From: Candidatus Aenigmatarchaeota archaeon
GTDB lineage: Archaea; Aenigmatarchaeota; Aenigmatarchaeia; GW2011-AR5; JACRMX01
Direction of reading: 5' to 3'
Assembly (NCBI GenBank): GCA_016219485.1
Contig: JACRMX010000023.1
Span: 1 to 13,610 of the forward strand
Length of the DNA stretch: 13,610 nt
Part shown: positions 1 to 13,008 of the stretch, piece by piece
How positions within the stretch are numbered: the first letter of the stretch is position 1
How the letters are laid out: every line of letters begins with the position of its first letter
The notes under the pieces: generated by a model
What the model was told of the DNA's origin: nothing
Databases searched by the model: none
The model's input: the letters and a program-made list of their open reading frames with translations, nothing else
Translations under genes and position numbers: made by a program

Positions 1-747
1 CTCTGCCTTCCCTTTTATGTCATCCACTACATTCTTTGCAACCGAAAGTGCATACCTCATGTGTCTTGGGTCAACCTTTGCCATTGTCGAGTTCGCAACT
101 AAATTTATGGCTTCTGGAGAAATTGTATTGAAAAGTCCCATTATATTTGACAGCTTGCTGGAAAGCGCAAGCTTTATATCGTGCTCCCACTCTTCCTTGC
201 TGGCATAAAGCCTTTTGTCAAAAAGGTAAAGACCTCCGTCCAGGAATGATGTCATGCCATCGATGAACATGCTTAAGTTATTTTTATGGCTGCCTGGGAT
301 GTCTATGTGGATCAGCTTCTTTCCAGCATCTTCTAACTTTAATTGATCACCGAGCGGATTGCAGTAAGCTGTTATCCCGTGCATCCTCATAAAGGCGAAC
401 ATAAAGTCAGAAAGCAATTTGTCATCGCAATAAATAGCAACGCTATCATTTCCGGTAGGATTTAAGGAAGCAAAGATTTCAATTTCACCGTGCTCATTGA
501 TTAGTGCAGGCACCATGTTAAGCATATTATGCTTAATTACTATAGCCTTGTTCAGTCTGCTCAAATTTTTTGCTATATCAGGGTCTGGAGAGAAAACAGC
601 GATGCTTTTGTTGTCAGCTGTATCAATGTTATCGGATATTGTATAGTTATAGTATTCAGTAACATTTTCATCCCTAATACTGTCCCTTTTTATAACACGC
701 CCCACTGCAACTTTAAGTTCATCTACAGGTTTTGGGAACTTGTACAT
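1..747 (-). CDS. Hypothetical protein, N-terminal 249 codons only; the gene continues past the left edge of the window. Last gene seen in the regulator-gvpF-gvpG operon.
   Basis: I checked the minus-strand frame from the ATG at 745-747 (MYKFPKPVDELKVAVGRVIKRDSIRDENV...) codon by codon and found no stop down to position 1. It starts 10 nt after the stop of the upstream 135-aa gene. The ORF track lists only complete ORFs, which is why it is absent there. I recognise no family. Confidence 0.5.
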   Translation of the reverse strand, partial: MYKFPKPVDELKVAVGRVIKRDSIRDENVTEYYNYTISDNIDTADNKSIAVFSPDPDIAKNLSRLNKAIVIKHNMLNMVPALINEHGEIEIFASLNPTGNDSVAIYCDDKLLSDFMFAFMRMHGITAYCNPLGDQLKLEDAGKKLIHIDIPGSHKNNLSMFIDGMTSFLDGGLYLFDKRLYASKEEWEHDIKLALSSKLSNIMGLFNTISPEAINLVANSTMAKVDPRHMRYALSVAKNVVDDIKGKAE

Positions 748-757
748 AATCTTCACT

Positions 758-1165
758 TCACTCTCGGTGATCAACTAGCCCAAACCTCTTTCCATAAATT
801 CTCTTTCTTGTTGTTATCGCACCCGAGTATTTCGGCTTCTGAGGCACACTGGACCAGTTCGCAGGGTTTCTTAGCATTTTCGCATACTTAGGCGAGGGCA
901 TAAGCGATTGTGAAAGCGGGTTAAGATTCTTCTCTCTGCCTTCTTTTTTCTTAGCCATATTCCTTTCATTGGCCTGCACCCTCTCCTCATACCGCTGCCG
1001 CATATACATCAATTTCATTCTCACATTATCGCGCCATTTCTCAATTCTTCTTCTCATTTCAAGGTTGATTATTCTTCGCGGCTTTTCTTTTCTCCCTAAG
1101 CGAATCGAACTAAGGCTTCTCCTGCCCGTACTCCCCTTTCCTATGTCTGAAGACCTGTCAGCCAT
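758..1165 (-). CDS. Small, highly basic Arg/Lys-rich protein (135 aa) of unknown function, co-operonic with gvpF/gvpG.
   Basis: ATG at 1163-1165 is preceded by GAGGTGA (rc of 1169-1175), a strong SD-like site. It begins 9 nt after the gvpG stop. Composition is extreme R/K/E (e.g. RRRIEKWRDNVRMKLMYMRQRYEERVQANERNMAKKKEGREK). No family recognised. Confidence 0.5.
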   Translation of the reverse strand: MADRSSDIGKGSTGRRSLSSIRLGRKEKPRRIINLEMRRRIEKWRDNVRMKLMYMRQRYEERVQANERNMAKKKEGREKNLNPLSQSLMPSPKYAKMLRNPANWSSVPQKPKYSGAITTRKRIYGKRFGLVDHRE

Positions 1166-1174
1166 GCTATCACC

Positions 1175-1468
1175 TCATAACAATAGACCTGTGCTAAACT
1201 GGCCTATGTTAATATCATTTACCCTCTGTGCTATTCTTAATTTCTCTGCCAGCTCTGAAGTTCTCTTTTTATACTCTTCTCTTGGCAATTCTCCAAGTTC
1301 GTATAGTAATGCAATCTCCTTTATTTCGTTCTGTGTTTTTTTCAAAGGATATAATTCCTGCAAGGAATTTTTATGTACAGCACGAAAGCTCATCATGATA
1401 AGATTCGGCAGAGGTTCGAAACCAGCCAGGCTTAACGGTAATAAAAATACATCGTCTATGACAAACAT
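1175..1468 (-). CDS. gvpG: Gas vesicle protein GvpG. The ORF track extends to 1519 with a GTG; the likely true start is the ATG at 1466-1468.
   Basis: MFVIDDVFLLPL... at the N-terminus and ...LYELGELPREEYKKRTSELAEKL fit the GvpG family pattern. The ATG at 1466-1468 overlaps the gvpF TAA (TAATG) and is preceded by GGAGGAGAAGG (rc of 1471-1481). Position directly after gvpF is the canonical one. Confidence 0.65.
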   Translation of the reverse strand: MFVIDDVFLLPLSLAGFEPLPNLIMMSFRAVHKNSLQELYPLKKTQNEIKEIALLYELGELPREEYKKRTSELAEKLRIAQRVNDINIGQFSTGLLL

Positions 1469-2124
1469 TACCTTCTCCTCCCCATTATTCTTATATCCAC
1501 GAAATTGTACGGGGGCCACGGCCCGGAATATTTAATTTTACATTCTTTGTATTTCTGCCCTAGCCTTTCCACCTCTTCTGAAAATTTCTCTATGTCTCTT
1601 TTGTCAACCAAAAATGATTTGTTGTAAAGCAACCTGTCAGAAAACAGCTCGCCTCTTCGAACTTCGACGACAATCCTGTCCAAAACTGCAAAATCCTCTT
1701 CTTTTACAGCTTGGGTCATTTCTTGTGGAATACCCGTGTCTAAAGGAATGTCTTCTTTTACATCTTTACCTTCTTTTGGGGCAACAACCTTCACACCGAG
1801 CTCTATTTTATTGTCTATTAGTCTGAGGCTCCTTTTTAGAATGGGATAAACATTCCTCATTGTGTTTACCAGAATGCCTTTTGTTCTGAATACCATCCCA
1901 AATGCTACTGGCAAAACTGTATGCTCTTTCAGAAGACATAGCTCAACATCCTTGTGCCTTGCCACGTTGTCATCAGTGGGCTCGTAATCTTTTAGCGGAA
2001 CCTCGCTGGCTATGGCGCATAAATCATGATACGGCAGAGCATAAGGCCTGCCGCCTTCTATACCCTCTTCAGGAAACCCGTTTAGTTTGGTTCTGTTTAT
2101 TATGCAGTAGAGATATTCAGCCAT
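1468..2124 (-). CDS. gvpF: Gas vesicle protein GvpF (GvpF/GvpL family).
   Basis: N-terminal EYLYCII (YxYG-like) and C-terminal FSDRLLYNKSFLVD...YSGPWPPYNFVDIRIMG closely match haloarchaeal GvpF (FTDRLIINKSYLVD...YTGPWPPYNFVDIHIG). The ATG at 2122-2124 lies 2 nt after the stop of the upstream regulator gene. Confidence 0.9.
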   Translation of the reverse strand: MAEYLYCIINRTKLNGFPEEGIEGGRPYALPYHDLCAIASEVPLKDYEPTDDNVARHKDVELCLLKEHTVLPVAFGMVFRTKGILVNTMRNVYPILKRSLRLIDNKIELGVKVVAPKEGKDVKEDIPLDTGIPQEMTQAVKEEDFAVLDRIVVEVRRGELFSDRLLYNKSFLVDKRDIEKFSEEVERLGQKYKECKIKYSGPWPPYNFVDIRIMGRRR

Positions 2125-2126
2125 GG

Positions 2127-3143
2127 CTATTCCTTCTTTTCATAGAGCAAAGATATGCTTTCCACGCCCTGTATGTTCGAGCGTAGGAACATGTTCAGGA
2201 AATTCTTTGCCTGCATGTGATCGTTTAGCATACGGGTTATCCGTTCTCTATCAATAACTGTGTATATCCTTACCTTCTCGAATCCGAGCTTGCTCTGTAG
2301 AAGACCTTCCTTTTCAAGCTTATGTAGCAGCGGGTATAGCGTGCCTGAAGAAAGCAAAACATGAAAGTTATCGTATATTCTCTTTTTTATATTAATTCCG
2401 CATATAGGCTCTTTGGAAACCATAGCAAGAATAATCGTCTTCAATTCGTCTTTCACAAATTTTTCAAAAAAGCCGTTGGTGGTATTTGCTAAAGAGGGTC
2501 CTGTGTCTAGCATATTATTGTCCTTGATTATAATGGCCTTAGAGTGCTTCTCTACTATTCTCCTACAATCGTCCTTGCCTAATTTGGTGATGTCGTACAT
2601 GCAGAGTACAGCGTCGCAATGCAATTTGCTGAGAACTTTTTCCCTCTCTTCGTAATTGAGAAAGCTTTCAGCATTATTAAACCCTATCTTTTTCCTTTTG
2701 TGTACAACCTCATGTTTTAGCGTTTTCGTCGGCTTTGGCTCCAGTGACCTGACCTGTATAGGAGAAGTGCAATCTATTATTATTGTGCCAAAGTCGCCAT
2801 TTCCACTCTTCTTCCCTTCGCCCCCCCCCCTCTCCAACCAGAAAAATTTATTAATGTTCTCTATGGAAGGGTTGATTATTGTCAGTTTTCCAACTTTATA
2901 GTCTATTAGGATTTCCCTTACCTTTTCTAAATTCTCGTCTGTAATCAAAAGGGCATTAGTATTTCTGCCGGACAAGAACTGGACGTAAATTTTATATTTG
3001 TCCGTTTCTGGTGTATATAAATATAAAATATGCCCATTCCCGGACAAGAGATGATTCGTAGATTCGTTAATATTGTCAAAGGTTACTAAATGCTCATTGC
3101 ACAACTTATTTTCTGATGCCCACATATTTTCCAATGCCCACAC
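2127..3143 (-). CDS. Fused transcriptional regulator: N-terminal MEDS-like sensory domain plus C-terminal PadR-type winged helix. Start is either GTG 3143 or ATG 3125.
   Basis: C-terminus has the PadR signature GTLYPLLHKLEKEGLL. The N-terminal ~200 aa has MEDS-like motifs (HILYLY...E, DAVLCMYDITKL...H). The stop is 2 nt before the gvpF ATG, so translation looks coupled. It contains a G10 tract encoding Gly-Gly-Gly. Confidence 0.6.
   Translation of the reverse strand: MWALENMWASENKLCNEHLVTFDNINESTNHLLSGNGHILYLYTPETDKYKIYVQFLSGRNTNALLITDENLEKVREILIDYKVGKLTIINPSIENINKFFWLERGGGEGKKSGNGDFGTIIIDCTSPIQVRSLEPKPTKTLKHEVVHKRKKIGFNNAESFLNYEEREKVLSKLHCDAVLCMYDITKLGKDDCRRIVEKHSKAIIIKDNNMLDTGPSLANTTNGFFEKFVKDELKTIILAMVSKEPICGINIKKRIYDNFHVLLSSGTLYPLLHKLEKEGLLQSKLGFEKVRIYTVIDRERITRMLNDHMQAKNFLNMFLRSNIQGVESISLLYEKKE
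2821..2830. repeat. C10/G10 homopolymeric tract inside the regulator CDS.
   Basis: cccccccccc at 2821-2830. The minus strand reads AGG GGG GGG GGC, giving R-G-G-G in the ORF (WLERGGGEGKK). This is very unusual in the AT-rich sequence here. Confidence 0.95.
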
Positions 3144-3429
3144 CCCATGTCTTGCAATTCATTAACAAAATATTGCAGAGAGAATATCGAAATTTGACTC
3201 GAAAAAATGATTCATATATTTAATTGTGAAAGATGGTATATATAGTTTTTCCAGACGCATTTCCTGTGTCGAACATCGATACGAAATACGACTCTGCATA
3301 TCAGCTTAATAAGTGAACCAACAATTCGTGAAAAGATTTCCTGCGGTTTTTAAGGGACAAAATACCTAATGTAAAGAGTTTACCTGTTGGCTTTTATTAC
3401 TAGCTAAGGCAAATGCCGGCTAGAAGAAA

Positions 3430-3714
3430 TTATTTTTCTTCTTCAGAATGCGTATAAGGTACGCCGCGTCTTCTTGTATTAAGTCTTCTATAGCTTAGAA
3501 TTTTATTGCCACCCTCAGTGATAACAACCTCGTATTCTCCTATCAAATCTTGGCTGCTTGGAACAGCTCTTCTTTCCAGCATCTCAATATTAATCTGCCA
3601 ATTTTTTCCAACCTGCTTGGCGCTTATAATACCGAGCGATTCTTTCTTCAGCGTATCTTTCATCAGGCTGCTTGCCATTTCATTAATTTTAACAAGTTCG
3701 TTCATAAAAATCAC
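3430..3714 (-). CDS. Small hypothetical protein (91-94 aa) ending the gvpA-gvpN operon. Start is GTG 3714 overlapping the upstream stop, or ATG 3705.
   Basis: ORF MIFMNELVKINEMASSLMKDTLKK...YEVVITEGGNKILSYRRLNTRRRGVPY. Start-stop overlap or 5-nt spacing with the paralog gene. No family recognised. Confidence 0.45.
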   Translation of the reverse strand: MIFMNELVKINEMASSLMKDTLKKESLGIISAKQVGKNWQINIEMLERRAVPSSQDLIGEYEVVITEGGNKILSYRRLNTRRRGVPYTHSEEEK

Positions 3715-4058
3715 GGAATGTAAACATAGTCGTTTTCGAGTCTTACTTGTGCGCCAATCCAGTCTTTCAGCGACCCCTTCACATTATAGCTTTCCAGATT
3801 CTCTACATTGAAATAATATTTTAGGAATTGCGCCAGCTTATTCCTTCTGAACTGACCAGCCTTGCTAAAAGCCTTGGGGTCAAAGCTACCATCAGCTTTT
3901 AGGCATGTAAAAAACATCTCTTTTATCTCCTTGTCAGCAGTTTTGACTTTTATGATAATAACATCAGTATCATTTCCAATTCTCTTAGGCTTCTTCTTCC
4001 ATAGGTCGTAGACGCTGTATAGCTTTGCCTCTTTGATAAGTCCGTGGTTTGTTATCAT
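3711..4058 (-). CDS. Hypothetical protein, paralog 2 of a tandem pair (115 aa).
   Basis: Clearly similar to the 4144-4500 product: both share a KLY(D/S)VYDLWKKKP...DTD.I..KVK....EIKE.FFTCLK.DG.F. K..SK....RNKLA.FL.YYF...E.YN.K....DW.G..V pattern. ATG at 4056-4058. Confidence 0.5.
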   Translation of the reverse strand: MITNHGLIKEAKLYSVYDLWKKKPKRIGNDTDVIIIKVKTADKEIKEMFFTCLKADGSFDPKAFSKAGQFRRNKLAQFLKYYFNVENLESYNVKGSLKDWIGAQVRLENDYVYIP

Positions 4059-4143
4059 GAATTAAATTCGGCCAAAAGGTTTATAAAACTTCTTTTTACA
4101 TATCGGAATTCGACATACATAAAAAAACTTGTTGCTATGGGGA

Positions 4144-4500
4144 TTATTGCTTTTTAACAGTAAGGGGAATAAATATTCTATCGTCCTTTATTTGTACACG
4201 TCGACCTTTCCAGTCCTTTATATTTTCCTTTAGATTATACTCCTCTGGGTTTGTGTCAAAATAGTACATGAGAAATCGTGCAAGCTTATTTCTCATGGCG
4301 GCACTTCTTTTGCTTGGGGTTTTTGTTGAAAAGGTTCCATCCCCTTTCAGACAGGTGAAGAATGTTTCTTTTATTTCTTTGTTTCCGCTCTTCACTTTTA
4401 CTACTATAGCGTCTGTGTCATTGAAAGCGACCTGGCGTGGTTTCTTCTTCCATAAGTCGTATACATCATATAATTTAGCATCAACAATAACAGCATCCAT
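4144..4500 (-). CDS. Hypothetical protein, paralog 1 of a tandem pair. The ORF track starts at TTG 4512; the likely start is ATG 4498-4500.
   Basis: Paralogous to the 3711-4058 product (see that entry). The ATG at 4498-4500 is preceded by GGGTG (rc of 4506-4510), which is SD-like. No family recognised. Confidence 0.5.
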   Translation of the reverse strand: MDAVIVDAKLYDVYDLWKKKPRQVAFNDTDAIVVKVKSGNKEIKETFFTCLKGDGTFSTKTPSKRSAAMRNKLARFLMYYFDTNPEEYNLKENIKDWKGRRVQIKDDRIFIPLTVKKQ

Positions 4501-4545
4501 CAAAACACCCAATTTCTTAATATCTTAATAGCTGAAAACATTACA

Positions 4546-4950
4546 TTATATGTAAACGACCTCAGGTCTTGGTATGCTGGGCGAGAATGGCATCCTCCTG
4601 CCACCCCATTTCCATGATCTCTTATCCCATCTCACCAATTTCTTATCAAACCCAGAAAGTTTGGCATTCCAGTTTGAAGCGTAGATGACCTCCCTTCTTC
4701 TCCACCGGCTCTGCCATTTGAGTGCTCTCTTTGCCATTCTTGCTTCTGATCTTTCTGCCCTTCTATCCCACTTCAAGGCAAGCTTATTTGCACGCAAATC
4801 CCATTTTATACTCCAAGAAGAAACCTTTGCCTTGTAGCCTGCTTCATATTTTACTCTTTTAGCTAGCCATTTTGTGCTTATCCTGGCATTCTTGGCATCC
4901 TGCTTTAAATGCCTCATTTCAATTTTTCTTGCTAATCTATTTTGCAGCAT
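4546..4950 (-). CDS. Very basic Trp/Lys/Arg-rich repetitive protein (134 aa) immediately downstream of gvpN.
   Basis: The ATG at 4948-4950 is 2 nt after the gvpN TAA (TAATTATG). The sequence has repeated W-x3-W / KW(D/Q) elements: WSIKWDLRANKLALKWDRRAE...ALKWQSRWRRRE...LVRWDKRSWKWGGRR. No family recognised. Confidence 0.5.
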   Translation of the reverse strand: MLQNRLARKIEMRHLKQDAKNARISTKWLAKRVKYEAGYKAKVSSWSIKWDLRANKLALKWDRRAERSEARMAKRALKWQSRWRRREVIYASNWNAKLSGFDKKLVRWDKRSWKWGGRRMPFSPSIPRPEVVYI

Positions 4951-4952
4951 AA

Positions 4953-5978
4953 TTATAACATTTTTTGAATTCGCTCCTTTATCAATAATCTTTTTTTGGC
5001 TACATCATCAAAACCTAAGAATTTTGATGACATGGCATCAACACATACTTCTTCGAGATAATCTTTACCAAAACCGTTAGTTGCCTGTAAGGCCTGCCCG
5101 ATCATTATTGCTATCCTTGTTCCAGGTTTTTCTACACCGCCTAAAATGTTTCGCAGTTCCCTTACTACATCGACAATCTTCTCAGCCCGCGCTTTCGGCA
5201 GGCCCGAATGAGCTTGAACTATCTTTACCTCTGTATCCCTGTTGTAATAATCCATATGTATTGTTGCAATCCTGTCTAGCAATGCATCCTGCGGCTTGTG
5301 GACGCCTGCGTACTCCATATTATTTGAAGTCAGCAACAATGAGAAATCCGGGTGAACTTTGATGTACCTATCTTCGCCGAACTTAGTTGGCAGTTCCAAT
5401 ACACCCTCTTCCAGAACAGAAAGCAGGATGTTGTTTGCCTCAGGCCTGCTCCTTGAGAATTCATTATAAATTAATGTATAGCCATACTGGCACGCAAGTG
5501 TCAGAGGATTAGAAACCCATCTTGCTTCCATCGTATCTTTATCCTTGAAGACATTGTGAATAAATTTATCCCTTATGGTGGTCATCTCTATCTTTGAATA
5601 GCCGCCGATCAGGTTAGTGGTATTAATGGCTTCATCACCATTAACCCATACAGAAGGCTTTCCGAGCAAATTGGCAGCCTGCAAGGCTAGTGCAGTTTTC
5701 CCGCATCCTGTAGGACCAATAATGTGTACAGGATAGCCAGTCTTTAGCCATAGGAGGATTTTGCCTATATACCTTTTGACTTCGTCTGTCTCAATAAAAT
5801 TTTTCGGCACTGGTGACAAGAATTTTGCTTCGATATCTTCCCTTACTGTAGCAAGCTGGACTTCTCTGACATCTTCCTGTTCGCGTTGTCTAGTAAGTAT
5901 TGTAAGCTTTTTCTCAGCTATGGCTTGGTGAACAGCTCCACCTCTAACTTTTCGCGGATGTTCTGGAACATATTTCAT
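4953..5978 (-). CDS. gvpN: Gas vesicle protein GvpN (AAA+ ATPase).
   Basis: Walker A GPTGCGKT, overall AAA+ layout, ~340 aa, and a position downstream of gvpA. The ATG at 5976-5978 is preceded by AAGAGGA (rc of 5983-5989). Confidence 0.88.
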   Translation of the reverse strand: MKYVPEHPRKVRGGAVHQAIAEKKLTILTRQREQEDVREVQLATVREDIEAKFLSPVPKNFIETDEVKRYIGKILLWLKTGYPVHIIGPTGCGKTALALQAANLLGKPSVWVNGDEAINTTNLIGGYSKIEMTTIRDKFIHNVFKDKDTMEARWVSNPLTLACQYGYTLIYNEFSRSRPEANNILLSVLEEGVLELPTKFGEDRYIKVHPDFSLLLTSNNMEYAGVHKPQDALLDRIATIHMDYYNRDTEVKIVQAHSGLPKARAEKIVDVVRELRNILGGVEKPGTRIAIMIGQALQATNGFGKDYLEEVCVDAMSSKFLGFDDVAKKRLLIKERIQKML

Positions 5979-6125
5979 ATCAGAATCCTCTTATTTTATT
6001 GTAACTTTACCCCTACATCTTTGCTTCTAGATGTGTTCATCCGGCTTCCTACCATTGTATCGTTAGTTGGATACCCTGCGAGCCTAGTGGCGTTGAACAT
6101 GCTCATAAAAAATAAAAGCAGGCGA

Positions 6126-6497
6126 TTAGCCCCAAAAATTCTTTATGTACTCTTGCAGTGTCGTGGCTTGATAGTTCTGGATTTTCGTTGCGAAATTGTT
6201 AATCTTTGTCACAACCTTTCTTGAACCTGCGTTTATCTCTCTTACTGCGGCTTTATTTACCTTTTCCTGTTCTTTTATTGTCTGCTGAAATAATGCGATT
6301 TTGTTGTGCACTTCCTGCACGCCTTTGTACATATTTGCAGCTGCTGCAGCATTCTCTTTTTCCTGCGCTCGTATATCATCCACTAACTTGCTCACGCTTG
6401 TCGCCATAACTCGAACACCCGCTTGCATTGTCTTATAGGTTTCTCTAATCGCTGCCTGTTTTGCTCTAACGCTCCCTGCTACAAGTGGATCAGCCAT
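6126..6497 (-). CDS. Helical Ala/Lys/Gln-rich protein (123 aa) with ~33-residue periodicity, between gvpA and gvpN. Candidate GvpC/GvpO-like accessory protein.
   Basis: The ATG at 6495-6497 is preceded by AGGTGA and lies 13 nt after the gvpA stop. Segments KQAAIRETYKTMQAGVRVMATSVSK and KAAVREINAGSRKVVTKINNFATK are 66 residues apart (2 x 33), with a weaker middle copy (AAAAANMYKGVQEV...). The family assignment is uncertain. Confidence 0.55.
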   Translation of the reverse strand: MADPLVAGSVRAKQAAIRETYKTMQAGVRVMATSVSKLVDDIRAQEKENAAAAANMYKGVQEVHNKIALFQQTIKEQEKVNKAAVREINAGSRKVVTKINNFATKIQNYQATTLQEYIKNFWG

Positions 6498-6510
6498 TTA
6501 ATCACCTGCC

Positions 6511-6735
6511 TTAAGCTTTAGCAGGTGCTGCGATGGCCGCTTGCTCAACCTTTGTTATCTCTTCTGCGTAGTGCAGGTATGTGTCAACGCTTGCCACTAC
6601 AACTCTCGCTTCTATAGTGACTATCTCTATTCCCACCAAGTTTACTCTTGCCCATGCATCTACAACCAAACCCTTGTCAAGGATTCGGTCGATAACTTCT
6701 GCAAGACTTGCTGTATCTGGCGCTTGATTTACCAT
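6511..6735 (-). CDS. gvpA: Gas vesicle structural protein GvpA.
   Basis: [45 protein letters not shown] is the hallmark GvpA core. 74 aa. The ATG at 6733-6735 is preceded by GAGGTG. Confidence 0.95.
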
Positions 6736-6760
6736 ATTTTCTACACCTCATATTTTTATT

Positions 6761-6768
6761 TTATATAA
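6761..6768 (-). promoter_or_regulatory. TATA-like box (TTATATAA) about 26-33 nt upstream of the gvpA ATG.
   Basis: AT-rich TATA-like element at the expected archaeal distance upstream of gvpA. It implies a very short leader. Confidence 0.3.
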
Positions 6769-6896
6769 GTTGCCCCCAATTCCTTCTGCAATTAAATGAT
6801 GCGTCTGCATCACTTTATTTAATGCAGTATAAAATTGCACAACCCTTTTAATTATATTGCAATCCGTTCAATATAAACATAAGCAAAAAATCGATG

Positions 6897-6919
6897 TCCG
6901 TATCGGATTTCGATACGCA
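6897..6919. promoter_or_regulatory. Inverted repeat CGTATCG-gattt-CGATACG in the gvpA upstream region.
   Basis: Seen directly. A related CGATACGaaATACGA element lies at 3276-3291, upstream of the regulator gene. Confidence 0.3.
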
Positions 6920-7192
6920 TAATCTGTGAGTTCTCTGTAAGCATTCCTATGGAAAGTTTATGCGATCTTTAGACTCTTTTGTCTTGAACGTTTTGCCTCT
7001 TCATCTCATTAAGATAAAGTATAAAAATCTGCCAGATACTTTATCTTATGCATCATGCTCAAAGACCGAAGGTCTTTGGCACACCGCGGAAGCAAAGCTT
7101 CTGCGAGTGAATTCCTCAGAAAATTCATTCCAAAAGAATTTGCTTGTCTGGCATATCCTATCTTGATAGCCTCTCTAGAACCCTGTCTGAAA

Positions 7193-7227
7193 ATTTTAAA
7201 AATATATCATCCCAAATATTTTTAAAA
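7193..7227. repeat. Perfect 13-bp AT-rich inverted repeat ATTTTAAAAATAT / ATATTTTTAAAAT with a 9-nt spacer.
   Basis: Seen directly: attttaaaaatat-atcatccca-aatatttttaaaat. Confidence 0.6.
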
Positions 7228-7330
7228 TCATATTCTCACAGCAGTTGAATCTTAACGTCAGTTGTTTGATTAACAGAACCGTTCCTGATGCATCCTCACA
7301 CATCGCATAAGAACACTGATAAAACTTTTT

Positions 7331-7465
7331 CCCGCCAGTAACGCCGTTGTTCATTGATAGCCGAACTGACGCAACGCCGAATGACGAGCGTTCGATTGAC
7401 TCGCTCGTCAGTTTTTCGATGCGCCTTTTCTGAATGGCATTGCTCTAACGGTTGAGGGCTGGCGG
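7331..7465. other. GC-rich island with nested inverted repeats in the long gvpA-upstream intergenic region. Candidate structured RNA or a remnant of one.
   Basis: cccgccag at 7331-7338 pairs with ctggcggg at 7458-7465, an 8-bp closing stem spanning ~135 nt. An internal hairpin gacgagcg-ttcgattgact-cgctcgtc (7393-7419) is followed by a T5 run. Local GC is well above the surrounding sequence. No convincing ORF; the 93-aa minus ORF 7296-7577 looks spurious. Confidence 0.25.
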
Positions 7466-7518
7466 GCAAGTGTATTGAGCATAAAATCTTTTTAAAGGAA
7501 ATAGTATACATATGAGTA

Positions 7519-7893
7519 GTGATACTAGTGGCAAAAAATAGGTATGATGTTTTTAGACAGGTTTTAATGATTTTCATAATATTAATATCACTATTTCAGT
7601 TATACTCAGCAATATTTCTAATTACCAGGGAGGCAGTTCGTTATATTGTATTTGCTGTATTTTCTGCTTCTACATTTATAATTGGCATGATATCAATTTA
7701 TTCAATTTTAAGTAGAGAGAAATGGGGAATTTATGCTACATCGGTGTTCTTTATGGTCACAGCAGCTTATTTTGCTCTGAGTCTAGTATATATGCCTTAT
7801 TATCTCATGCCTGTGACAAATATTCTGGGAATTATATTTTTATTATGCCTCTGGCTTGCTGTATTGGTAAATAAAAATAAGCTGCAGAAATGA
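7519..7893 (+). CDS. Small hydrophobic membrane protein (3-4 predicted TM helices). Start is GTG 7519 or ATG 7567.
   Basis: Almost entirely hydrophobic ORF: IFIILISLFQLYSAIFLI...ILGIIFLLCLWLAVLV. No family recognised. Confidence 0.4.
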   Translation: MILVAKNRYDVFRQVLMIFIILISLFQLYSAIFLITREAVRYIVFAVFSASTFIIGMISIYSILSREKWGIYATSVFFMVTAAYFALSLVYMPYYLMPVTNILGIIFLLCLWLAVLVNKNKLQK

Positions 7894-7901
7894 TGACCTG
7901 A

Positions 7902-8378
7902 TTATTTTTCTGCAGAAAATTTCTCTGCAAGCAATGCTGCATTTTCCTTCAGCCTTTTTATTATATCCTTTATTTTGATCTTGGATGCTTTTCTCATCTC
8001 CGGGACGAGGTTTTTGTGATAAAATTCCCCGAATGTCTCGTTGATTATACCTTCGCTGTTTCTGAAAGCAACCCTTAGAAACCCGTACATAGTAATAACC
8101 AGCGGCTTCTCAGCGTTGTTGTCGCCGTCTATTGAAACTTCCACGACAATCTTTGTGTGCTTGTCTATTATTTTAATTATAGAAAATTTAATTTTGATTA
8201 TGTTTTCACGTCCTCCGGCAAGGACCTCATTTTCCTTCTCCACCATTCTTCCGAGTGTCTTTGCCATGTCCATAAATTCAAGCGCAAAAACATATGGGCT
8301 ATTCACCATAACCGAGATGCTCTCATCTGCAAATGTTTCTGTAATTATGCGCATAGCGTCAGCCTCTGCATTCTTCAC
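7902..8378 (-). CDS. Hypothetical protein (150-158 aa). Alternative start at ATG 8352-8354 would avoid the overlap with the upstream gene.
   Basis: ORF MKNAEADAMRIITETFADESISVMVNSPYVFALEF... with a mixed charged/hydrophobic character. No family recognised. Confidence 0.45.
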   Translation of the reverse strand: MKNAEADAMRIITETFADESISVMVNSPYVFALEFMDMAKTLGRMVEKENEVLAGGRENIIKIKFSIIKIIDKHTKIVVEVSIDGDNNAEKPLVITMYGFLRVAFRNSEGIINETFGEFYHKNLVPEMRKASKIKIKDIIKRLKENAALLAEKFSAEK

Positions 8379-8901
8379 ATAGCCATGAGCCTGATACCTT
8401 TTTCAGGTTATCGGAATAGTTTCCGCATGATTCGCACTGGTCAAAGAGAACAGGCTCTTCTTTGCGGTCAAGACTGCCTATTTTCATTTTTTCGAGCATA
8501 ATTTCAAAAAGAGCCGGCTCTACCCTCAGGATATCATTGTTCGTAATTATTCCAATGAGCTTTTTGTTTTTAAAAACAAGCAGCTTTTCTATGCCTTTCT
8601 GCGTAAGCAGGCGGGCTGCTTCTTCCAGTGTTTTGTTTGGCGAGATCGTAACCGGATTTTTTGTCATTATGTCGGAAACCTTTTTTCCTTTTCTGCTGGC
8701 AACATGCTTGTAAACTATATCCGAAGGCGTGAGTATGCCAGCGACTCCTTTTTTCCCGACAACGACAACTGAGCCTATTTTGTTTTTCTTCAGCATCTCA
8801 GCTGCTTTTTTGATGCTATCGCCAGGAGAAATGGTTTTTACGCTCCTGTTCATAACTTCCTTGACGAGTGCGCTGTACCTCATGATAGATATATGGTACA
8901 T
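8359..8901 (-). CDS. CBS-domain pair protein with a C-terminal C4 zinc ribbon.
   Basis: Two CBS-like units (VMNRSVKTISPGDSIKKAAEMLKKNKIGSVVVV..GILTPSDIV and DIMTKNPVTISPNKTLEEAARLLTQKGIEKLLVF..IGIITNNDIL), followed by CESCGN...CEEC. Confidence 0.7.
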   Translation of the reverse strand: MYHISIMRYSALVKEVMNRSVKTISPGDSIKKAAEMLKKNKIGSVVVVGKKGVAGILTPSDIVYKHVASRKGKKVSDIMTKNPVTISPNKTLEEAARLLTQKGIEKLLVFKNKKLIGIITNNDILRVEPALFEIMLEKMKIGSLDRKEEPVLFDQCESCGNYSDNLKKVSGSWLCEECRG

Positions 8902-8970
8902 GCCTAATAAAAAGATTAGTGAGGTTTGAAAAAACCTTATCCTTTAGTTTGCAGAGAATTGTATATATAT

Positions 8971-9087
8971 AAAAGTTAGAAACTTTTCCTTGTATTATTA
9001 GAAGGTTTTTTTCTGCTTTCCCCTCGATATTAGGGGGAAAGAGAAAAAACGTACGGGCATGGAAAAACAGTGCTTTTTCCAAATGTT
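8971..9087. repeat. Composite palindromic intergenic repeat, copy 1 (modules C-A-B), upstream of hjc.
   Basis: C is aaaagttagaaactttt (7-bp inverted repeat). A is gaaggtttttttctGCTTTCCCCTcgatattAGGGGGAAAGagaaaaaacgtacggg. B is CATGGAAAAAcagtgcTTTTTCCAAATGtt. It matches 9592-9735 almost base-for-base apart from an extra B module there. Confidence 0.7.
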
Positions 9088-9145
9088 ATCCTTTTTTATT
9101 ACAGAACCTAAAGGCTCTCCAATAAAAACTAACGCCTTCTATTAT

Positions 9146-9523
9146 ATGCTCATGGTAAAAACTTATAAGAAAGGCTATACAGCTGAAAGGGAAATTGTTC
9201 ATACCCTGTATAAAATGGGGTATGCTGTTATACGGACCCCGCGTTCAGGCCGCATATGCCTGCCAAGCCCTGATATTATTGCTGCAAAACATGGTAAAAT
9301 TATTGTTCTCGAATGCAAGTCACGCAAGCGCGCTTTTAACGTGCCTGCAGAGCAGGTGGAAGAGCTGAGAGAATGGGAAAAAAGAGCAGGAGCAACAGCT
9401 TATATCGCATGGAAGGTTGCACACAAAGGGTGGTTCTTTTTCCCCATGTCTGTTGTAGAAGAAAACAGGGGAAATATTGGAAAAAGAATGCCGCAAAAAG
9501 CCATAGGCATTGACGATATCTGA
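9146..9523 (+). CDS. hjc: Holliday junction resolvase Hjc (archaeal PD-(D/E)xK nuclease). The ORF track start at 9059 lies inside the repeat and is probably not used.
   Basis: KKGYTAEREIVHTLYKMGYAVIRTPRSG...PDIIAAKHGKIIVLECKSRK matches the Hjc core (ERE..., PD, E.K). About 125 aa, typical Hjc size. ATG at 9146 or 9152. Confidence 0.8.
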   Translation: MLMVKTYKKGYTAEREIVHTLYKMGYAVIRTPRSGRICLPSPDIIAAKHGKIIVLECKSRKRAFNVPAEQVEELREWEKRAGATAYIAWKVAHKGWFFFPMSVVEENRGNIGKRMPQKAIGIDDI

Positions 9524-9591
9524 AACAGATAAATCAAAAATAAGAGTTTTTGAAAACCCCTTATCCCGCAGAGAATTGAATAGATATGAGA

Positions 9592-9735
9592 AAAAGTCAG
9601 AAACTTTTTCTATACATGGAAAAGGCTGTGCCTTTTCCAATGTTTTGCCAGAAGGTTTTTTTCTCTTTCCCCTCAATATTAGGGGGAAAGAGAAAAAAAC
9701 CGTATGGGATTGGAAAAACGTGGTTTTTCAAAGTC
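9592..9735. repeat. Composite palindromic intergenic repeat, copy 2 (modules C-B-A-B'), downstream of hjc.
   Basis: aaaagtcagaaactttttc (C). Then ttctataCATGGAAAAGGctgtgCCTTTTCCAATGtt (B, 9609-9644). Then gaaggtttttttctctttcccctcaatattagggggaaagagaaaaaaaccgtatggg (A, 9651-9706). Then a degenerate B: ttGGAAAAACgtgGTTTTTCaa. Confidence 0.7.
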
Positions 9736-9755
9736 CTCAAGCTTTGTATGTAATG

Positions 9756-10553
9756 TCAGAAAACTGCCTCAAGCCAGGCGCCAATCAATATCAGCGTCTC
9801 TGCAAGAGCAAGATAGATGAGCGCGTCTTTTACAACAGCGTTGAATGCTATTGAGCCGTATTTTTCCCGCAAAAGCCCTATTGAAAGTATTCCGCCAGCC
9901 AGGCCTGCAAGAAAATAGCCGGCGATCTCCGGCACGCCATGAAGCGCTATTGCGCCCAGGCCCAGCGGAACGCCATACAGGTATGCCTGCATGGTATGCA
10001 TGCCCTCTCCTATAAGCGACCTTATGTTAAAGCCAAGATAAACTGCTATGATAGAAGCGTTCCATGCCAGTATAAATACAGCGCCTGCACCGAACATGAT
10101 TGAAAGTATAAAGCTGAGTATCATGGTCTGCGAATTATTTATAAAATATTTCAGGAAAAGGTAGCTGCTGTCGACCGTGGTCCCTGATACCATGTTTTTA
10201 AGCGTGTTTGTCTGCAGGGAAAATACATTCATATCCGGGGCAAAAACAAAAATAAATGCAAGCGAGAATATTACCCCGAGAAAAAATGCTGAATAAACGT
10301 ATATCGCGCAGATGTGCCGGGTAAATATATTACCGCTCGGGTTTTTGTCCCTTCGCTCTTCTATGACGAATATGCGCTGGAAAAATGGCACAAAAAGTAT
10401 TGTTATAAACGTTATTGTGAGCAGAGATGCTTCTGAGGGAAATATGCGCCATGCAAAAAATGATGCTATCAGAGAATACACGAAAGCAACAACAAATATG
10501 CGCCATGGATCCTTTTCTGCGGATTTCGGGTTTATCAGTGATTCAAGAACCAT
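9756..10553 (-). CDS. Integral membrane protein, SpoIIM/DUF95-like.
   Basis: Multi-pass hydrophobic protein with a C-terminal HGVPEIAGYFLAGLAGG segment resembling the conserved HG(I/V)xE(I/L)PA motif of the SpoIIM/DUF95 family. Family call is tentative. Confidence 0.5.
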   Translation of the reverse strand: MVLESLINPKSAEKDPWRIFVVAFVYSLIASFFAWRIFPSEASLLTITFITILFVPFFQRIFVIEERRDKNPSGNIFTRHICAIYVYSAFFLGVIFSLAFIFVFAPDMNVFSLQTNTLKNMVSGTTVDSSYLFLKYFINNSQTMILSFILSIMFGAGAVFILAWNASIIAVYLGFNIRSLIGEGMHTMQAYLYGVPLGLGAIALHGVPEIAGYFLAGLAGGILSIGLLREKYGSIAFNAVVKDALIYLALAETLILIGAWLEAVF

Positions 10554-10679
10554 GATATCTATTTATTTTCCGGTTTAAATATAGTTTTAAAAAACATGCC
10601 CTTAAATTTATTTTATAGCAATACAAGGAAATAAACAGTATATTACTTCCTTGTTTGCTATATATTAGAAAAGCAATGC

Positions 10680-10718
10680 TTTTCTATACATGGAAATTCC
10701 TTCAGAATTTCCAATGTG
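10680..10718. repeat. Module B repeat, copy 3, in the divergent promoter region upstream of the HMGCS operon.
   Basis: ttttctataCATGGAAATTccttcagaAATTTCCAATGtg. It shares the ttttctatacatgg...ccaatgt frame with 9607-9644 but carries a different, still complementary, stem. Confidence 0.65.
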
Positions 10719-10768
10719 TGAAACAAGTTGTATAATGTCCAAATTCTTTACTTGTTTCACTATAAAAG
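10718..10768 (+). promoter_or_regulatory. Perfect 11-bp inverted repeat (GTGAAACAAGT-N21-ACTTGTTTCAC) abutting a TATAAAAG box about 40 nt upstream of the HMGCS ATG. Candidate operator plus promoter.
   Basis: Arms at 10718-10728 and 10750-10760 are exact reverse complements. tataaaag at 10761-10768 is a TATA-like box. Confidence 0.4.
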
Positions 10769-10803
10769 CCTTTTCGGTTTATTGATTTCATCAGGTTGTT
10801 TAT

Positions 10804-11847
10804 ATGGCTGGTATAGTAGGATATGGCGCATACGTGCCGCGGCTTAGGATAACGGTCGACGAAATAGCGCGCATATGGGGCCAGGACCCTGAGAGCATAA
10901 AAAGCGGGCTTGGCGTGAGTGAGAAAAGCGTGCCTGAGCATGATGAAGACACTGTTACCATAAGTGTTGAAGCTGCAAAAAATGCTATTGCGCGCGCAGC
11001 TATTGACCCAAAGGACATAGGAGCAGTATACGTGGGCTCTGAGAGCCATCCGTACACAGTAAAGCCTTCTGGCACAATAGTTGTTGATAGCCTAGGCATC
11101 GGGCCTGATGTTTCTGTTGCTGACACAGAGTTTGCATGCAGGGCTGGAACAACAAACATATTCATATGCATGGGGCTTGTAATGTCTGGCATGATAAAAT
11201 ATGGCCTTGCTATTGGCGCAGACACATCGCAGGCCAGGCCTGGTGATGCCCTTGAATACACAGCTGCTGCAGGCGGAGCTGCATTTGTAATAGGAAAGGA
11301 CAACGTGGCTGTAAAAATAAAAGACGCATATTCATTTGTAACAGACACTTCTGATTTCTACAGAAAGGAAGGCGAGATATATCCGACACATGCAGGAAGG
11401 TTCACAGGTGAGCCTGCTTATTTCAGGCATGTTATTGCTGCAACAAAAACCGTGCTTGAAAAAAACAGTCTTAAGCCGCAGGATTTTGACTTCTGCGTAT
11501 TCCACATGCCCAATGGAAAATTTCCCGTAAGAGTTGCAAAGATGCTTGGCTTTGAAATGAAACAGCTGGAAGATTCGCTTGTGGTTAAAAAAATAGGAAA
11601 TACCTATTCAGGCTCAAGCCTGCTTGGTCTTTCGTCTGTTTTGGATAAAGCAAAGCCTGACCAGCGCATACTTATTACATCATATGGCTCAGGCGCAGGC
11701 TCGGACTCATTTATAATGGAAACAACAGACCTCATAGAAGAAATTCAGAACAGGGCGCCAAAAACAGACAGCTACATAGATGCTAAAAACAAAGAATACA
11801 TTGACTATGGTACATATGTAAAGATACGAAAAAAATTGAAGATGTGA
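10804..11847 (+). CDS. Archaeal-type hydroxymethylglutaryl-CoA synthase.
   Basis: N-terminal GIVGYGAYVPRLRI, active-site EFACRAGT and 347 aa fit archaeal HMGCS. Position is in an operon with thiolase and DUF35. Confidence 0.88.
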   Translation: MAGIVGYGAYVPRLRITVDEIARIWGQDPESIKSGLGVSEKSVPEHDEDTVTISVEAAKNAIARAAIDPKDIGAVYVGSESHPYTVKPSGTIVVDSLGIGPDVSVADTEFACRAGTTNIFICMGLVMSGMIKYGLAIGADTSQARPGDALEYTAAAGGAAFVIGKDNVAVKIKDAYSFVTDTSDFYRKEGEIYPTHAGRFTGEPAYFRHVIAATKTVLEKNSLKPQDFDFCVFHMPNGKFPVRVAKMLGFEMKQLEDSLVVKKIGNTYSGSSLLGLSSVLDKAKPDQRILITSYGSGAGSDSFIMETTDLIEEIQNRAPKTDSYIDAKNKEYIDYGTYVKIRKKLKM

Positions 11848-11867
11848 TATTAGATGAGTGTGATGCT

Positions 11868-13007
11868 ATGAAAAAGATCGCGATCATTGGCGGTTACCAG
11901 ACTGCATTCGGCGAGCTGTGGGAAAAATCACTCGGAGACTTAATAGAAGAGGCAGGCATAGGCGCGATCAGCGATTCCGGAATAGAGAAAAATGATGTTA
12001 ACTGCCTCTATCTTGGAAACATGGCAGCAGGCCGTTTTGTAGGGCAGGAGCATGTGGCTGCATTTGCTGCTGACTGCCTCTCTCTTAAGGTGCCTGCTAT
12101 ACGGTGCGAGGCTGCCTGCGCATCAGGTGCTCTTGCTTTTTCACAGGCGTGCATAAAAATATTGAGTGGAAAGGCTGAAACTGCGCTTGTTATCGGCGCA
12201 GAGAAAATGACTGATGTTATAGGTTCAGAGGCTGTAACAACGCTGATGGGAGCAGGGGACAGTGAATGGGAATCGAGCATAGGGCTGACATTTGCAGGGC
12301 TCTATGCACTAATGGCACGCGCGCATATGCACAGGTATAAAACAACAAGAGAGCAGCTTGCAATGGTCGCTGTTAATAACCATAAAAACGGGCAGAAAAA
12401 TGAAAAGGCGCAGTTCCGCTTTCCTATCACAGTGGATGATGTAATAAAATCTGCTGTCATAGCAGACCCCCTGCGGCTTCTTGACTGTTCTCCGATAACA
12501 GACGGAGCAGCATCAGTGATAGTTGCGAGCGAGGATTATGTGCAAAAGAAAAAAATAGAAAATCCTGTCTGGGTTCTTGGCAGCAGCCATGGAAGCGACA
12601 GCATAGGCCTCCACGACCGCGCTGACATAACAGAGATGGCTTCAGTTAAAAAAGCTGCAAAGGATGTTTTCGATGAATCTGGATTGAAACACAAGGACAT
12701 TGATGTTGTTGAACTGCATGACTGTTTTACTATAAATGAAATAATAGGCCTGGAAAGCATGGGATTCTGCGAGAAAGGAAAAGGCGGAACATTTGTGGAA
12801 GAGTCTGAATTACCAACAAACACAACAGGCGGGCTGAAATCATGCGGCCATCCTGTAGGAGCCACAGGCGTCAGGCAGATAATAGATATTTACAGGCAGC
12901 TCAAAGGCGTATCTATAAATCAGGTTAAAGGCGCAGAGCACGGGCTTGCTCTGAATGTTGGCGGCAGCGGAGCAACAGCCATTATACATATTCTTGGAGT
13001 TGAATAA
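11868..13007 (+). CDS. Archaeal acetyl-CoA C-acetyltransferase (thiolase). The ORF track starts at GTG 11844; the likely start is ATG 11868 (MKKIAIIGG).
   Basis: IAIIGGYQTAFGE, catalytic CEAACASGALAF, C-terminal GGLKSCGHPVGATG. The HMGCS TGA overlaps the upstream GTG frame. Confidence 0.88.
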   Translation: MKKIAIIGGYQTAFGELWEKSLGDLIEEAGIGAISDSGIEKNDVNCLYLGNMAAGRFVGQEHVAAFAADCLSLKVPAIRCEAACASGALAFSQACIKILSGKAETALVIGAEKMTDVIGSEAVTTLMGAGDSEWESSIGLTFAGLYALMARAHMHRYKTTREQLAMVAVNNHKNGQKNEKAQFRFPITVDDVIKSAVIADPLRLLDCSPITDGAASVIVASEDYVQKKKIENPVWVLGSSHGSDSIGLHDRADITEMASVKKAAKDVFDESGLKHKDIDVVELHDCFTINEIIGLESMGFCEKGKGGTFVEESELPTNTTGGLKSCGHPVGATGVRQIIDIYRQLKGVSINQVKGAEHGLALNVGGSGATAIIHILGVE

Positions 13008-13008
13008 A

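Follow-up and report, generated by a model that had tools for sequence, protein, structure and literature searches.

The described gas-vesicle (gvp) cluster that comes closest to the one discussed here is the p-vac region of Halobacterium salinarum pNRC100, which comprises gvpACNO and gvpDEFGHIJKLM. In gas-vesicle formation GvpA makes up the shell, the proteins GvpF through GvpM form an early assembly complex in which GvpI and GvpH are non-essential modulators, GvpN and GvpO support vesicle growth, and GvpE activates the gvpA promoter as well as its own (PMC9501494). The same review, which dates from 2022, called GvpD, GvpE, GvpO and GvpI haloarchaea-specific and described methanogen clusters as being without gvpC, gvpDE and gvpI and as carrying several copies of gvpA (PMC9501494). 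The subject of this analysis is a gas-vesicle cluster on contig JACRMX010000023.1, whose metagenome-assembled genome (MAG) is labelled Candidatus Aenigmarchaeota archaeon; the window, as used below, is the whole stretch of 13,610 bp that was analyzed.

In gene order the window-type cluster is nearly collinear with the Halobacterium region. Both have a unit consisting of gvpA, a repeat protein, gvpN and, after an interval, gvpO, and a second unit of an E-like gene, gvpF, gvpG and gvpI, followed at a distance by gvpJ, an H-like gene, gvpK, gvpL and gvpM. It is likely that the window holds the front part of a complete vac region of the haloarchaeal type, with the predicted plan A-C?-N-O plus E-F-G-I-J-H-K-L-M. 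The archaeon is uncultivated, and its MAG bears the label Aenigmarchaeota (DPANN). The original prediction, a reading of the window's letters, had described a locus in which gvpA, gvpN, gvpF and gvpG were recognizable and several uncharacterized small genes took the place of the accessory genes that such clusters usually carry. The open reading frames (ORFs) that it listed all exist on the minus strand where it had put them, though a 338-amino-acid (aa) gene at 2127-3143, similar to PadR and GvpE, was overlooked.

The leftmost of these ORFs, at 1-747 on the minus strand, reads open to base 1 and is 100% identical to HZB66_01240, an NCBI protein annotated as partial on a contig of 13,610 bp; the window is therefore one entire metagenome contig, and it ends within the gene next after gvpI. 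The gvp genes form two co-directional units on the minus strand, parted by a gap of 286 nucleotides (nt). Unit 1 runs gvpA, orf123, gvpN, orf134, orf122, orf115, gvpO, and unit 2 runs GvpE-like PadR regulator, gvpF, gvpG, gvpI (orf135) and orf249+, a member of a coiled-coil family. Along the cluster from gvpA the intergenic gaps are 13, 147, 2, 33, 85, -4, 286, 2, about -1, 9 and 10 nt, so the tight coupling of 2-13 nt once attributed to the small ORFs is found at some junctions (13, 2, 2, 9 and 10 nt) and not at others (147, 33, 85 and 286 nt). The features are as follows, in window coordinates.

6736-6900, no strand: predicted gvpA promoter region, with TTATATA, GAGGTG and inverted repeats.
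6511-6735, minus strand: gvpA, major shell protein of 74 aa (PF00741, NCBIfam).
6126-6497, minus strand: orf123, basic helical repeat protein at the gvpC position (three 32-aa repeats, synteny).
4953-5978, minus strand: gvpN, AAA+ ATPase of 341 aa (TIGR02640, PF07728).
4546-4950, minus strand: orf134, basic protein rich in Trp, Lys and Arg with an 11-residue repeat (orthologues, self-similarity).
4144-4512, minus strand: orf122, OB-fold-like paralog 1; likely true start at 4500.
3711-4058, minus strand: orf115, OB-fold-like paralog 2 (orthologues, similarity to orf122).
3430-3714, minus strand: gvpO, 94 aa as the longest ORF, likely start at 3705 (PF05800).
3144-3429, no strand: 286-bp intergenic region between the two units, predicted promoter of the regulator-gvpF unit.
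2127-3143, minus strand: GvpE-like PadR-family regulator of 338 aa (PF03551, hhalign match to GvpE).
1468-2124, minus strand: gvpF, 218 aa (PF06386).
1175-1519, minus strand: gvpG, likely start at 1468 (PF05120, NCBIfam).
758-1165, minus strand: gvpI homologue (orf135), isoelectric point (pI) 11.3 (hhalign match to Halobacterium GvpI).
1-747, minus strand: orf249+, N-terminal domain of a gene cut at the contig end (open frame, orthologues).

The four genes that had been recognized at the outset are confirmed by hidden Markov models (HMMs). GvpA matches PF00741 (E = 1.4e-14) and the NCBIfam GvpA model (5e-37) and scores 121 bits with halo_gas_GvpA, exceeding the cutoff of that model; GvpN matches TIGR02640 (8e-96) as well as PF07728; GvpF matches PF06386 (9e-42) and Halobacterium GvpF (2.5e-36); and GvpG matches PF05120 (2e-7) and the NCBIfam GvpG model (1e-13). 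The likely start of gvpG at 1468 overlaps the gvpF stop by 1 nt, and its orthologues begin at residue 18 of the longer frame. GvpO, which had been counted as beyond recognition, turns out to be the 94-aa ORF, matching PF05800 at 5.1e-15 and found by tblastn with Halobacterium GvpO at 1.8e-11; its orthologues in related loci are 84-89% identical. Identity to the Halobacterium proteins is 77% for GvpA, 46% for GvpN, 38% for GvpG, 35% for GvpO, 34% for GvpF and 30% for the GvpE region. The window's GvpF does not have the repetitive acidic insertion (KEGKDVKEDIPLDTG... units) that enlarges its orthologues to 275-354 aa (L007 11986-12813; L002 12333-13397; related loci are numbered with an L).

Each ORF that could not at first be placed has orthologues in related contigs, with ratios of nonsynonymous to synonymous substitution (dN/dS) of 0.09-0.5, the values for gvpN and gvpO being 0.12-0.33. 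Because of these orthologues and ratios the ORFs are, on comparative grounds, genuine genes under purifying selection and no chance ORFs.

Within the window gvpJ, gvpK, gvpL, gvpM and gvpH are indeed missing, as had been said of all but the last: tblastn with the proteins of relatives and of Halobacterium matches only gvpA and gvpF, and the contig stops inside the cluster. Relatives were found through a search with orf122 (12 homologues) and a scan of species-representative genomes, while a contig scan of genomes with GvpF as query turned up none, and look-ups of the window's exact GvpF and GvpA sequences were likewise without result. In these relatives the operon goes on. Genes for J, Hsp20, K, L and M stand 3' of gvpG in all eight syntenic loci read there (L002, L003, L004, L006, L007, L017, L018 and L024, amounting to about five independent assemblies), a count taken over the relatives. 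After gvpG, four of these loci (L002, L003, L004 and L007, the first two from Hainich groundwater on contigs of 42-44 kb) carry gvpI, orf320 and/or orf524-556 genes, a short GvpA-like gene and gvpJ, followed by two Hsp20-like genes, gvpK, gvpL, gvpM and a second PadR gene. In L007 the NCBIfam models identify GvpJ (1e-9 and 3e-29), GvpL (3e-47) and GvpM (2e-24), Pfam identifies GvpK, and the two Hsp20 copies match archaeal Hsp20 at about 1e-12 each (NCBIfam) and GvpH by hhalign at E = 7.5e-5. The same organization is seen in MAGs labelled Iainarchaeum (L017, an 88-kb contig) and Aenigmatarchaeota (L018, 69 kb), and the front part of the cluster also occurs in MAGs labelled Woesearchaeota and Methanosarcinales.

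Since J, K, L and M, which are essential genes, lie downstream in the relatives, the small ORFs are no substitute for the usual accessory genes. Going by synteny, unit 2 would continue just past base 1 with two gvpJ genes bearing zinc ribbons, two Hsp20/GvpH-like genes, gvpK, gvpL and gvpM, and gvpJ, gvpK, gvpL and gvpM very probably lie about 1.3-5 kb beyond it. That novel genes seemed to have replaced canonical ones is for the most part due to the point at which the contig was cut and to Gvp families for which there are no HMMs, an artefact in both cases.

Two of the window's genes bear on the comparison with haloarchaea. One is orf135 (135 aa, 9 nt 3' of gvpG), which was set against the 14 Gvp proteins of the Halobacterium salinarum pNRC100 vac region by profile comparison. 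Its family aligns with Halobacterium GvpI at an hhalign probability of 97.6% (E = 2.8e-12, 33% identity over 91 columns), and the two have in common the motifs NP..S.MP, S[ST]VP.[KT]PKYS and R[IL]YG[KQ]R. Halobacterium GvpI has 144 aa and a reported pI of 10.8 (PMC9501494). A bridge is provided by a 128-aa ORF of L009, a more distant cluster with the gene order F-G-H-I, which matches both orf135 (7.7e-19) and GvpI (2.5e-11) in BLASTP. Judged from these profiles and motifs, orf135 is a GvpI homologue; an unrelated basic protein was considered and rejected on the GvpI match. Neither Pfam nor NCBIfam has a model for GvpI, and orf135 had therefore looked unassignable. GvpI proteins restrict the length of the vesicles, which are longer in Halobacterium when gvpI is lost, and pair with GvpH as a heterodimer.

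The other is the overlooked 338-aa gene, whose C-terminal part matches the winged-helix PadR domain (PF03551, 1.1e-8) and PadR chains in the PDB (down to 1.6e-5) and aligns with Halobacterium GvpE by hhalign (95.9%, E = 5.7e-9). A tblastn search with GvpE finds window positions 2214-2465 at 5.6e-6, Halobacterium GvpE itself matches PadR at 5e-7, and the gene stands directly upstream of gvpF, as gvpE does. By similarity and position it is a GvpE-like regulator of the PadR family. Unlike GvpE, it carries an additional, conserved N-terminal domain of about 200 aa, for which there is a weak MEDS match only (E = 0.007), no similarity to GvpD by hhalign and nothing in a PDB sequence search.

The gap that precedes the regulator gene (3144-3429) is the largest in the cluster. 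It is rich in A and T and contains TATATATA as well as inverted repeats of AATTGCA/TGCAAT. The ATG of gvpA is preceded by TTATATA at a distance of about 35 nt and by GAGGTG at about 8 nt, and inverted repeats with AATTGCA are found at 6784-6842. The first region is probably the promoter of the regulator-gvpF unit and the stretch 6736-6900 that of gvpA; the AATTGCA inverted repeats and TATA-like boxes 5' of gvpA and of the regulator gene are candidate operator or promoter elements. The whole gap upstream of gvpA is unusually long (about 780 bp, 6736-7518) and contains no convincing gene, only ORFs of 50-93 aa, for which no family library was scanned; a further inverted repeat lies at 6845-6883.

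A basic motif, [IV]HKRK[KR][IL]G, often in the form (Y/W)xP[IV]HKRKRLGAxxLE, recurs across different proteins of closely related gvp clusters, with 18 sites listed (window 2682-2702 on the minus strand, L002, L006, L007, L020, L024 and L001). The GvpE-like regulator has it in its linker, proteins of the orf320 and orf556 families have it C-terminally, and the product of the second PadR gene, 3' of gvpM, has it N-terminally; several small ORFs contain it too. The R[IL]YG[KQ]R motif of GvpI, conserved as far as Halobacterium, is related to it. What these proteins share in the recurring motif may be a signal for docking or for degradation.

The finding of GvpI and GvpE homologues in non-halophilic MAGs labelled DPANN contradicts the view that these proteins are specific to haloarchaea (PMC9501494). 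The window-type cluster departs from the haloarchaeal plan in several respects. It has no GvpD homologue that was found, it has three extra genes between gvpN and gvpO and a large coiled-coil gene after gvpI, and its proteins are not acidic, so that there is no sign of salt-in adaptation. Among the relatives, L009 has exactly the order F-G-H-I, and in L006 the two units are divergent, as in haloarchaea. The relatives' gvpH-like genes are duplicated and lie 3' of gvpJ, unlike gvpH of the vac region, and gvpJ is duplicated with C-terminal zinc ribbons. The GvpJ-like pairs are at L007 15609-16301, L017 2118-2862 and L002 16655-17347, those of L002 and L017 being assigned by similarity only; both L007 copies have a C-terminal CxxC...CxxC zinc ribbon, which Halobacterium GvpJ does not.

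The non-halophilic archaeal system of comparison, that of Methanosarcina barkeri (gvpAAA-NOFG-JHKLM), has N-O-F-G followed by J-H-K-L-M, and this order agrees with that of the relatives' downstream block (PMC9501494). Compared with the methanogens, for which Methanosarcina was taken by description only, the window stands apart through its single gvpA, its GvpE-like gene, its GvpI homologue and its gene at the gvpC position.

That last gene, orf123, follows gvpA at a distance of 13 nt and encodes a protein of pI 9.8 that is predicted to be all-helical. It contains three 32-aa repeats; the self-score at offset 32 is 63, which none of 300 shuffles reaches, the highest of them scoring 46. Orthologues of 87-127 aa follow gvpA in L002, L006, L007, L015, L017, L018, L020 and L023; their length varies with repeat number, and all end in [DE]F.xY.K.F[WY]G, which resembles the repeat core of Halobacterium GvpC, DAF.xY.D.F[AY]. 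Position after gvpA, helical 32-aa repeats and variable copy number are likenesses to GvpC, known as a 33-aa repeat family in cyanobacteria (PF01304) and a 32-aa repeat family in haloarchaea (PF05465); GvpC attaches to the outside of the shell and increases the pressure at which vesicles collapse. In size and charge, however, the two differ: Halobacterium GvpC has 382 aa and is acidic, whereas the protein here is short and basic, and it has no HMM match to either family. In Anabaena, one 33-aa GvpC repeat extends over four GvpA monomers, where it touches acidic residues in helix alpha2 of GvpA (PMC9994262). A basic protein with a 32-aa period beside an acidic GvpA (pI 4.5) fits this mode of binding, and by analogy orf123 is a plausible candidate for a GvpC analogue. 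A 33-aa ORF just 5' of gvpJ in L007 (15517-15618) ends in EFIKEFWGWI, which corresponds to the C-terminal signature of the orf123 family, [DE]F.x..K.FWG.

A second repetitive protein, orf134, begins 2 nt 3' of gvpN and has a pI of 11.5 and 10 Trp residues. Its self-similarity peaks at offsets of 11 (score 75) and 33 (score 61) against a shuffle maximum of 47, and an aromatic residue returns every 11 positions. Orthologues 77-87% identical occupy the same place in L020 and L023 (dN/dS 0.27-0.28), while in L002, L006 and L007 a helical basic ORF of 94-97 aa stands 3' of gvpN instead. Comparison of orf134 with the families of orf94, orf135, orf123 and orf249 was negative, save for a KWD.R pentapeptide shared with the 94-97-aa ORF.

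At the other end of the cluster, orf249+ is 77-85% identical to the N-termini of proteins in L007 (556 aa) and L002 (524 aa) and of P0002. The family has 8 members in 5.8e9 proteins, all at gvp loci where the context is known, and a paralogous family, orf295-320. Its full-length relatives have about 520-560 aa, with a long coiled-coil part and, after it, a basic tail that has IHKRKRLG at its end. The AlphaFold2 model of orf249+ is poor, with a predicted local distance difference test score (pLDDT) of 58, and its fold matches are uninformative.

The two tandem paralogs between gvpN and gvpO, orf122 and orf115, are 56% identical to each other, and orf115 has orthologues 84-86% identical in L002 and L007 (dN/dS 0.17). 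An AlphaFold2 model of the family, built on a 12-sequence alignment, is confident (pLDDT 88, predicted template modelling score 0.82). Neither a Foldseek comparison with the PDB nor a search of its sequences gave anything significant, and the family is therefore named OB-fold-like, the model showing a predicted fold without close structural relative. The OB fold as such is a closed beta-barrel of five strands, with a helix inserted between strands 3 and 4, whose barrel face binds oligonucleotides, oligosaccharides or proteins. Known OB-fold proteins (PrgE of pCF10, RPA/SSB, CsaA/MetRS-C) have at most 14% sequence identity to the family and, unlike these, its genomic context is that of gas-vesicle clusters only. 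Profile search of 1.84 billion representative proteins found 52 members, 40 of them at E <= 1e-10; pattern scanning used the closer alignment of the family, the diverse one being too variable. None of 33 members matches Pfam or NCBIfam, and among the multi-domain members Pfam finds an OapC zinc ribbon in one and nothing else. No gas-vesicle protein described as an OB fold was met in the searched literature, most subscription journals lying outside the search.

All 11 contexts examined are gvp clusters, and in nine of them the gene lies in the gvpN-gvpO interval; the other two are L010, where it is near Hsp20, GvpG and Cdc48 genes, and L013, where it is beside two GvpL/F genes. One member, P0051, has an OB-like domain (99.4%) fused to an Hsp20/GvpH-like domain (hhalign 97.3%, E = 2.4e-11), and others bear long K/E-rich tails. 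From this distribution the OB-like family is a new candidate gas-vesicle accessory protein.

L010 belongs, with L011 and L012 (JGI 3300024353, Logan SRR31055087/91), to a far more elaborate gvp cluster with a 624-aa GvpF, two GvpG, Hsp20, a 418-aa K-rich plus OB-like protein, an AAA+ gene of the Cdc48 type, a GvpA-like protein of 317 aa, Hsp70 and a fusion of GvpL with DnaJ. Within the stretch of it that was read, gvpN did not appear. The clusters of L007 and L024 likewise have Cdc48 genes at their flanks.

Some of the small ORFs had been suspected of being very divergent Gvp accessory proteins and others of being new components, and there was reason for both suspicions. Of the two outcomes that the original prediction had named as refuting it, placement of the small ORFs in known families and missing genes just outside the window, each came about in part. 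Profile searches place several of them in known Gvp families: the 94-aa ORF is GvpO and the 135-aa ORF aligns with GvpI, while the 123-aa protein is a plausible GvpC analogue on marginal profile evidence. The OB-like pair, orf134 and orf249+ have no Pfam or NCBIfam family, yet they are conserved inside gvp clusters; the families of orf249, orf134, orf94 and the OB-like proteins are also negative by hhalign against all 14 Halobacterium Gvp proteins.

What the conserved newcomers do could be explained otherwise than by a part in assembly or in the shell. The OB-like pair and orf134 might be nucleic-acid-binding regulators of gvp expression, acting for example on mRNA, an explanation that carries some weight but that we hold to be unlikely. 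The member fused to an Hsp20/GvpH-like chaperone domain argues against it, as does the constant place of the genes between the AAA+ gene gvpN and gvpO, away from the regulator; in L010 the OB protein is two genes before the Cdc48 AAA+ gene. A basic charge would be expected equally of proteins that bind the acidic GvpA surface.

The reading of the window as the front part of a haloarchaeal-type vac region in a DPANN archaeon has several points weighing against it. The presence of gvpJ, gvpK, gvpL and gvpM is predicted from synteny with relatives whose proteins are 50-85% identical. GvpD has no homologue that the searches found. The orf123 protein has no match at E <= 1 to the GvpC models PF05465 and PF01304, the first of which Halobacterium GvpC matches at 3e-74, and in hhalign it reaches P = 0.008 against full GvpC and, against the Halobacterium repeat profile, a marginal P = 9.5e-4 over 29 of 38 columns, at probabilities of at most 22%. 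Finally, all taxonomic labels of the MAGs derive from metagenome binning, and one related MAG (L015) is labelled Methanosarcinales.

This label, together with the 77% identity of GvpA to that of Halobacterium, lends some color to the idea that the cluster has been mis-binned and belongs to a methanogen or other euryarchaeon rather than to DPANN. We consider this improbable. Independent depositors arrived at the labels Aenigmarchaeota (four MAG or protein labels), Iainarchaeum (the 88-kb contig) and Woesearchaeota, so that the DPANN-labelled MAGs with the cluster span three phyla, and several of the samples are 0.1-0.2 um filter fractions of groundwater. The published Methanosarcina clusters, moreover, are without gvpC, gvpE and gvpI (PMC9501494).

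The end of the contig raises another question. In Haloquadratum, gvpACNO and gvpFGHIJKLM lie apart, and the window could likewise reflect a real rearrangement, with J-H-K-L-M elsewhere in the genome, or the block could have been lost and the locus be a decaying remnant. Two independent assemblies break one gene apart at this place: in the closest relative, GCA_053537135.1, which has orf134, the cluster is on two contigs with the break within gvpI, one gene before the window's end. One of these contigs (L020) stops in gvpI; the other (L024), which begins after gvpI and was joined to the series through L020, carries orf315, orf540 and then J, J, Hsp20, Hsp20, K, L and M. The units are also arranged differently in L006, where the same gene set is present, the units are divergent and part of the set lies 3' of gvpO. 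Yet paralogous genes and coiled-coil repeats are where short-read assemblies commonly fail, and the break in the window has both beside it, the paralogs being those of the orf320 and orf556 families. The longer contigs L002, L003 and L007 run unbroken across the corresponding point, and the window's genes are all intact and under purifying selection; rearrangement or loss is accordingly quite improbable in our estimate.

A reduced or re-invented system, in which GvpJ, GvpM, GvpK and GvpL are absent from the genome and novel small ORFs take their roles, agrees with the failure to detect a homologue of the four inside the window and with the several conserved ORFs that have no family, but is very improbable, given that the contig ends inside the operon, that every same-order relative read past gvpG has the four genes, that hhalign shows no likeness of any novel ORF to the GvpA fold family, to GvpK or to GvpL, and that relatives have the OB-like genes alongside J, K, L and M, which the OB-like genes therefore do not replace.

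The surroundings of the cluster are unremarkable. Between it and a CBS-domain gene lie two ORFs without Pfam family (window 7519-8378), a probable membrane protein of 124 aa at 7519-7893 on the plus strand and a 158-aa ORF at 7902-8378 on the minus strand. The right flank (8359-13383) encodes a CBS-pair protein whose C-terminus bears a zinc ribbon, a Holliday-junction resolvase (Hjc), a membrane protein similar to SpoIIM and a trio of archaeal HMG-CoA synthase, thiolase and DUF35; by its predicted gene content it shows an archaeal chromosome context without obvious mobile element. Scans for Rfam families and tRNAs found none in the window.

If the window is indeed part of a complete haloarchaeal-type region, GvpA would polymerize into the ribbed shell, nucleation and assembly would fall to a complex of GvpF, G, J, K, L and M together with H and I, and the AAA+ protein GvpN together with GvpO would drive enlargement of the vesicle, with the PadR/GvpE-like protein activating the promoters. 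The orf123 protein might coat the acidic outer face of the GvpA ribs in the manner of GvpC, and orf134, as a Trp/Lys/Arg helix with periods of 11 and 33 residues, might likewise bind the surface or else serve as an adaptor. The OB-like proteins could be assembly or chaperone adaptors acting with GvpN/GvpO and the GvpH-like Hsp20.

As a kind, the cluster is known. New to the libraries searched are the lineage of its host and three of its components, namely the OB-like family, the protein with the 11-mer repeat and the regulator with its fused domain. No paper on gas-vesicle genes in Aenigm-, Iain- or Woesearchaeota or other DPANN was found in a search outside of which most subscription journals lay. 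We put forward tentatively, as a possibility that is rather doubtful as a whole, that DPANN archaea of very small size in groundwater, those of the MAGs with the labels Aenigmarchaeota, Iainarchaeota and Woesearchaeota, form gas vesicles by means of a haloarchaeal-type vac region, in which the OB-like family between gvpN and gvpO and the 11-residue-repeat Trp/Lys/Arg protein would be a required module, not recognized before, for assembly or shell decoration, and that GvpI and GvpE did not originate as inventions of haloarchaea but have been shared or exchanged with DPANN. The OB-like family is a concrete candidate for an accessory protein of gas-vesicle assembly, and a low-salt cluster of the haloarchaeal type with a short GvpC-like protein could serve the engineering of acoustic reporter genes. 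The occurrence of GvpI and GvpE in a collinear vac region of DPANN-labelled MAGs bears on the origin of the haloarchaeal cluster, and it raises the question whether buoyancy is of use to nano-sized, presumably host-associated cells.

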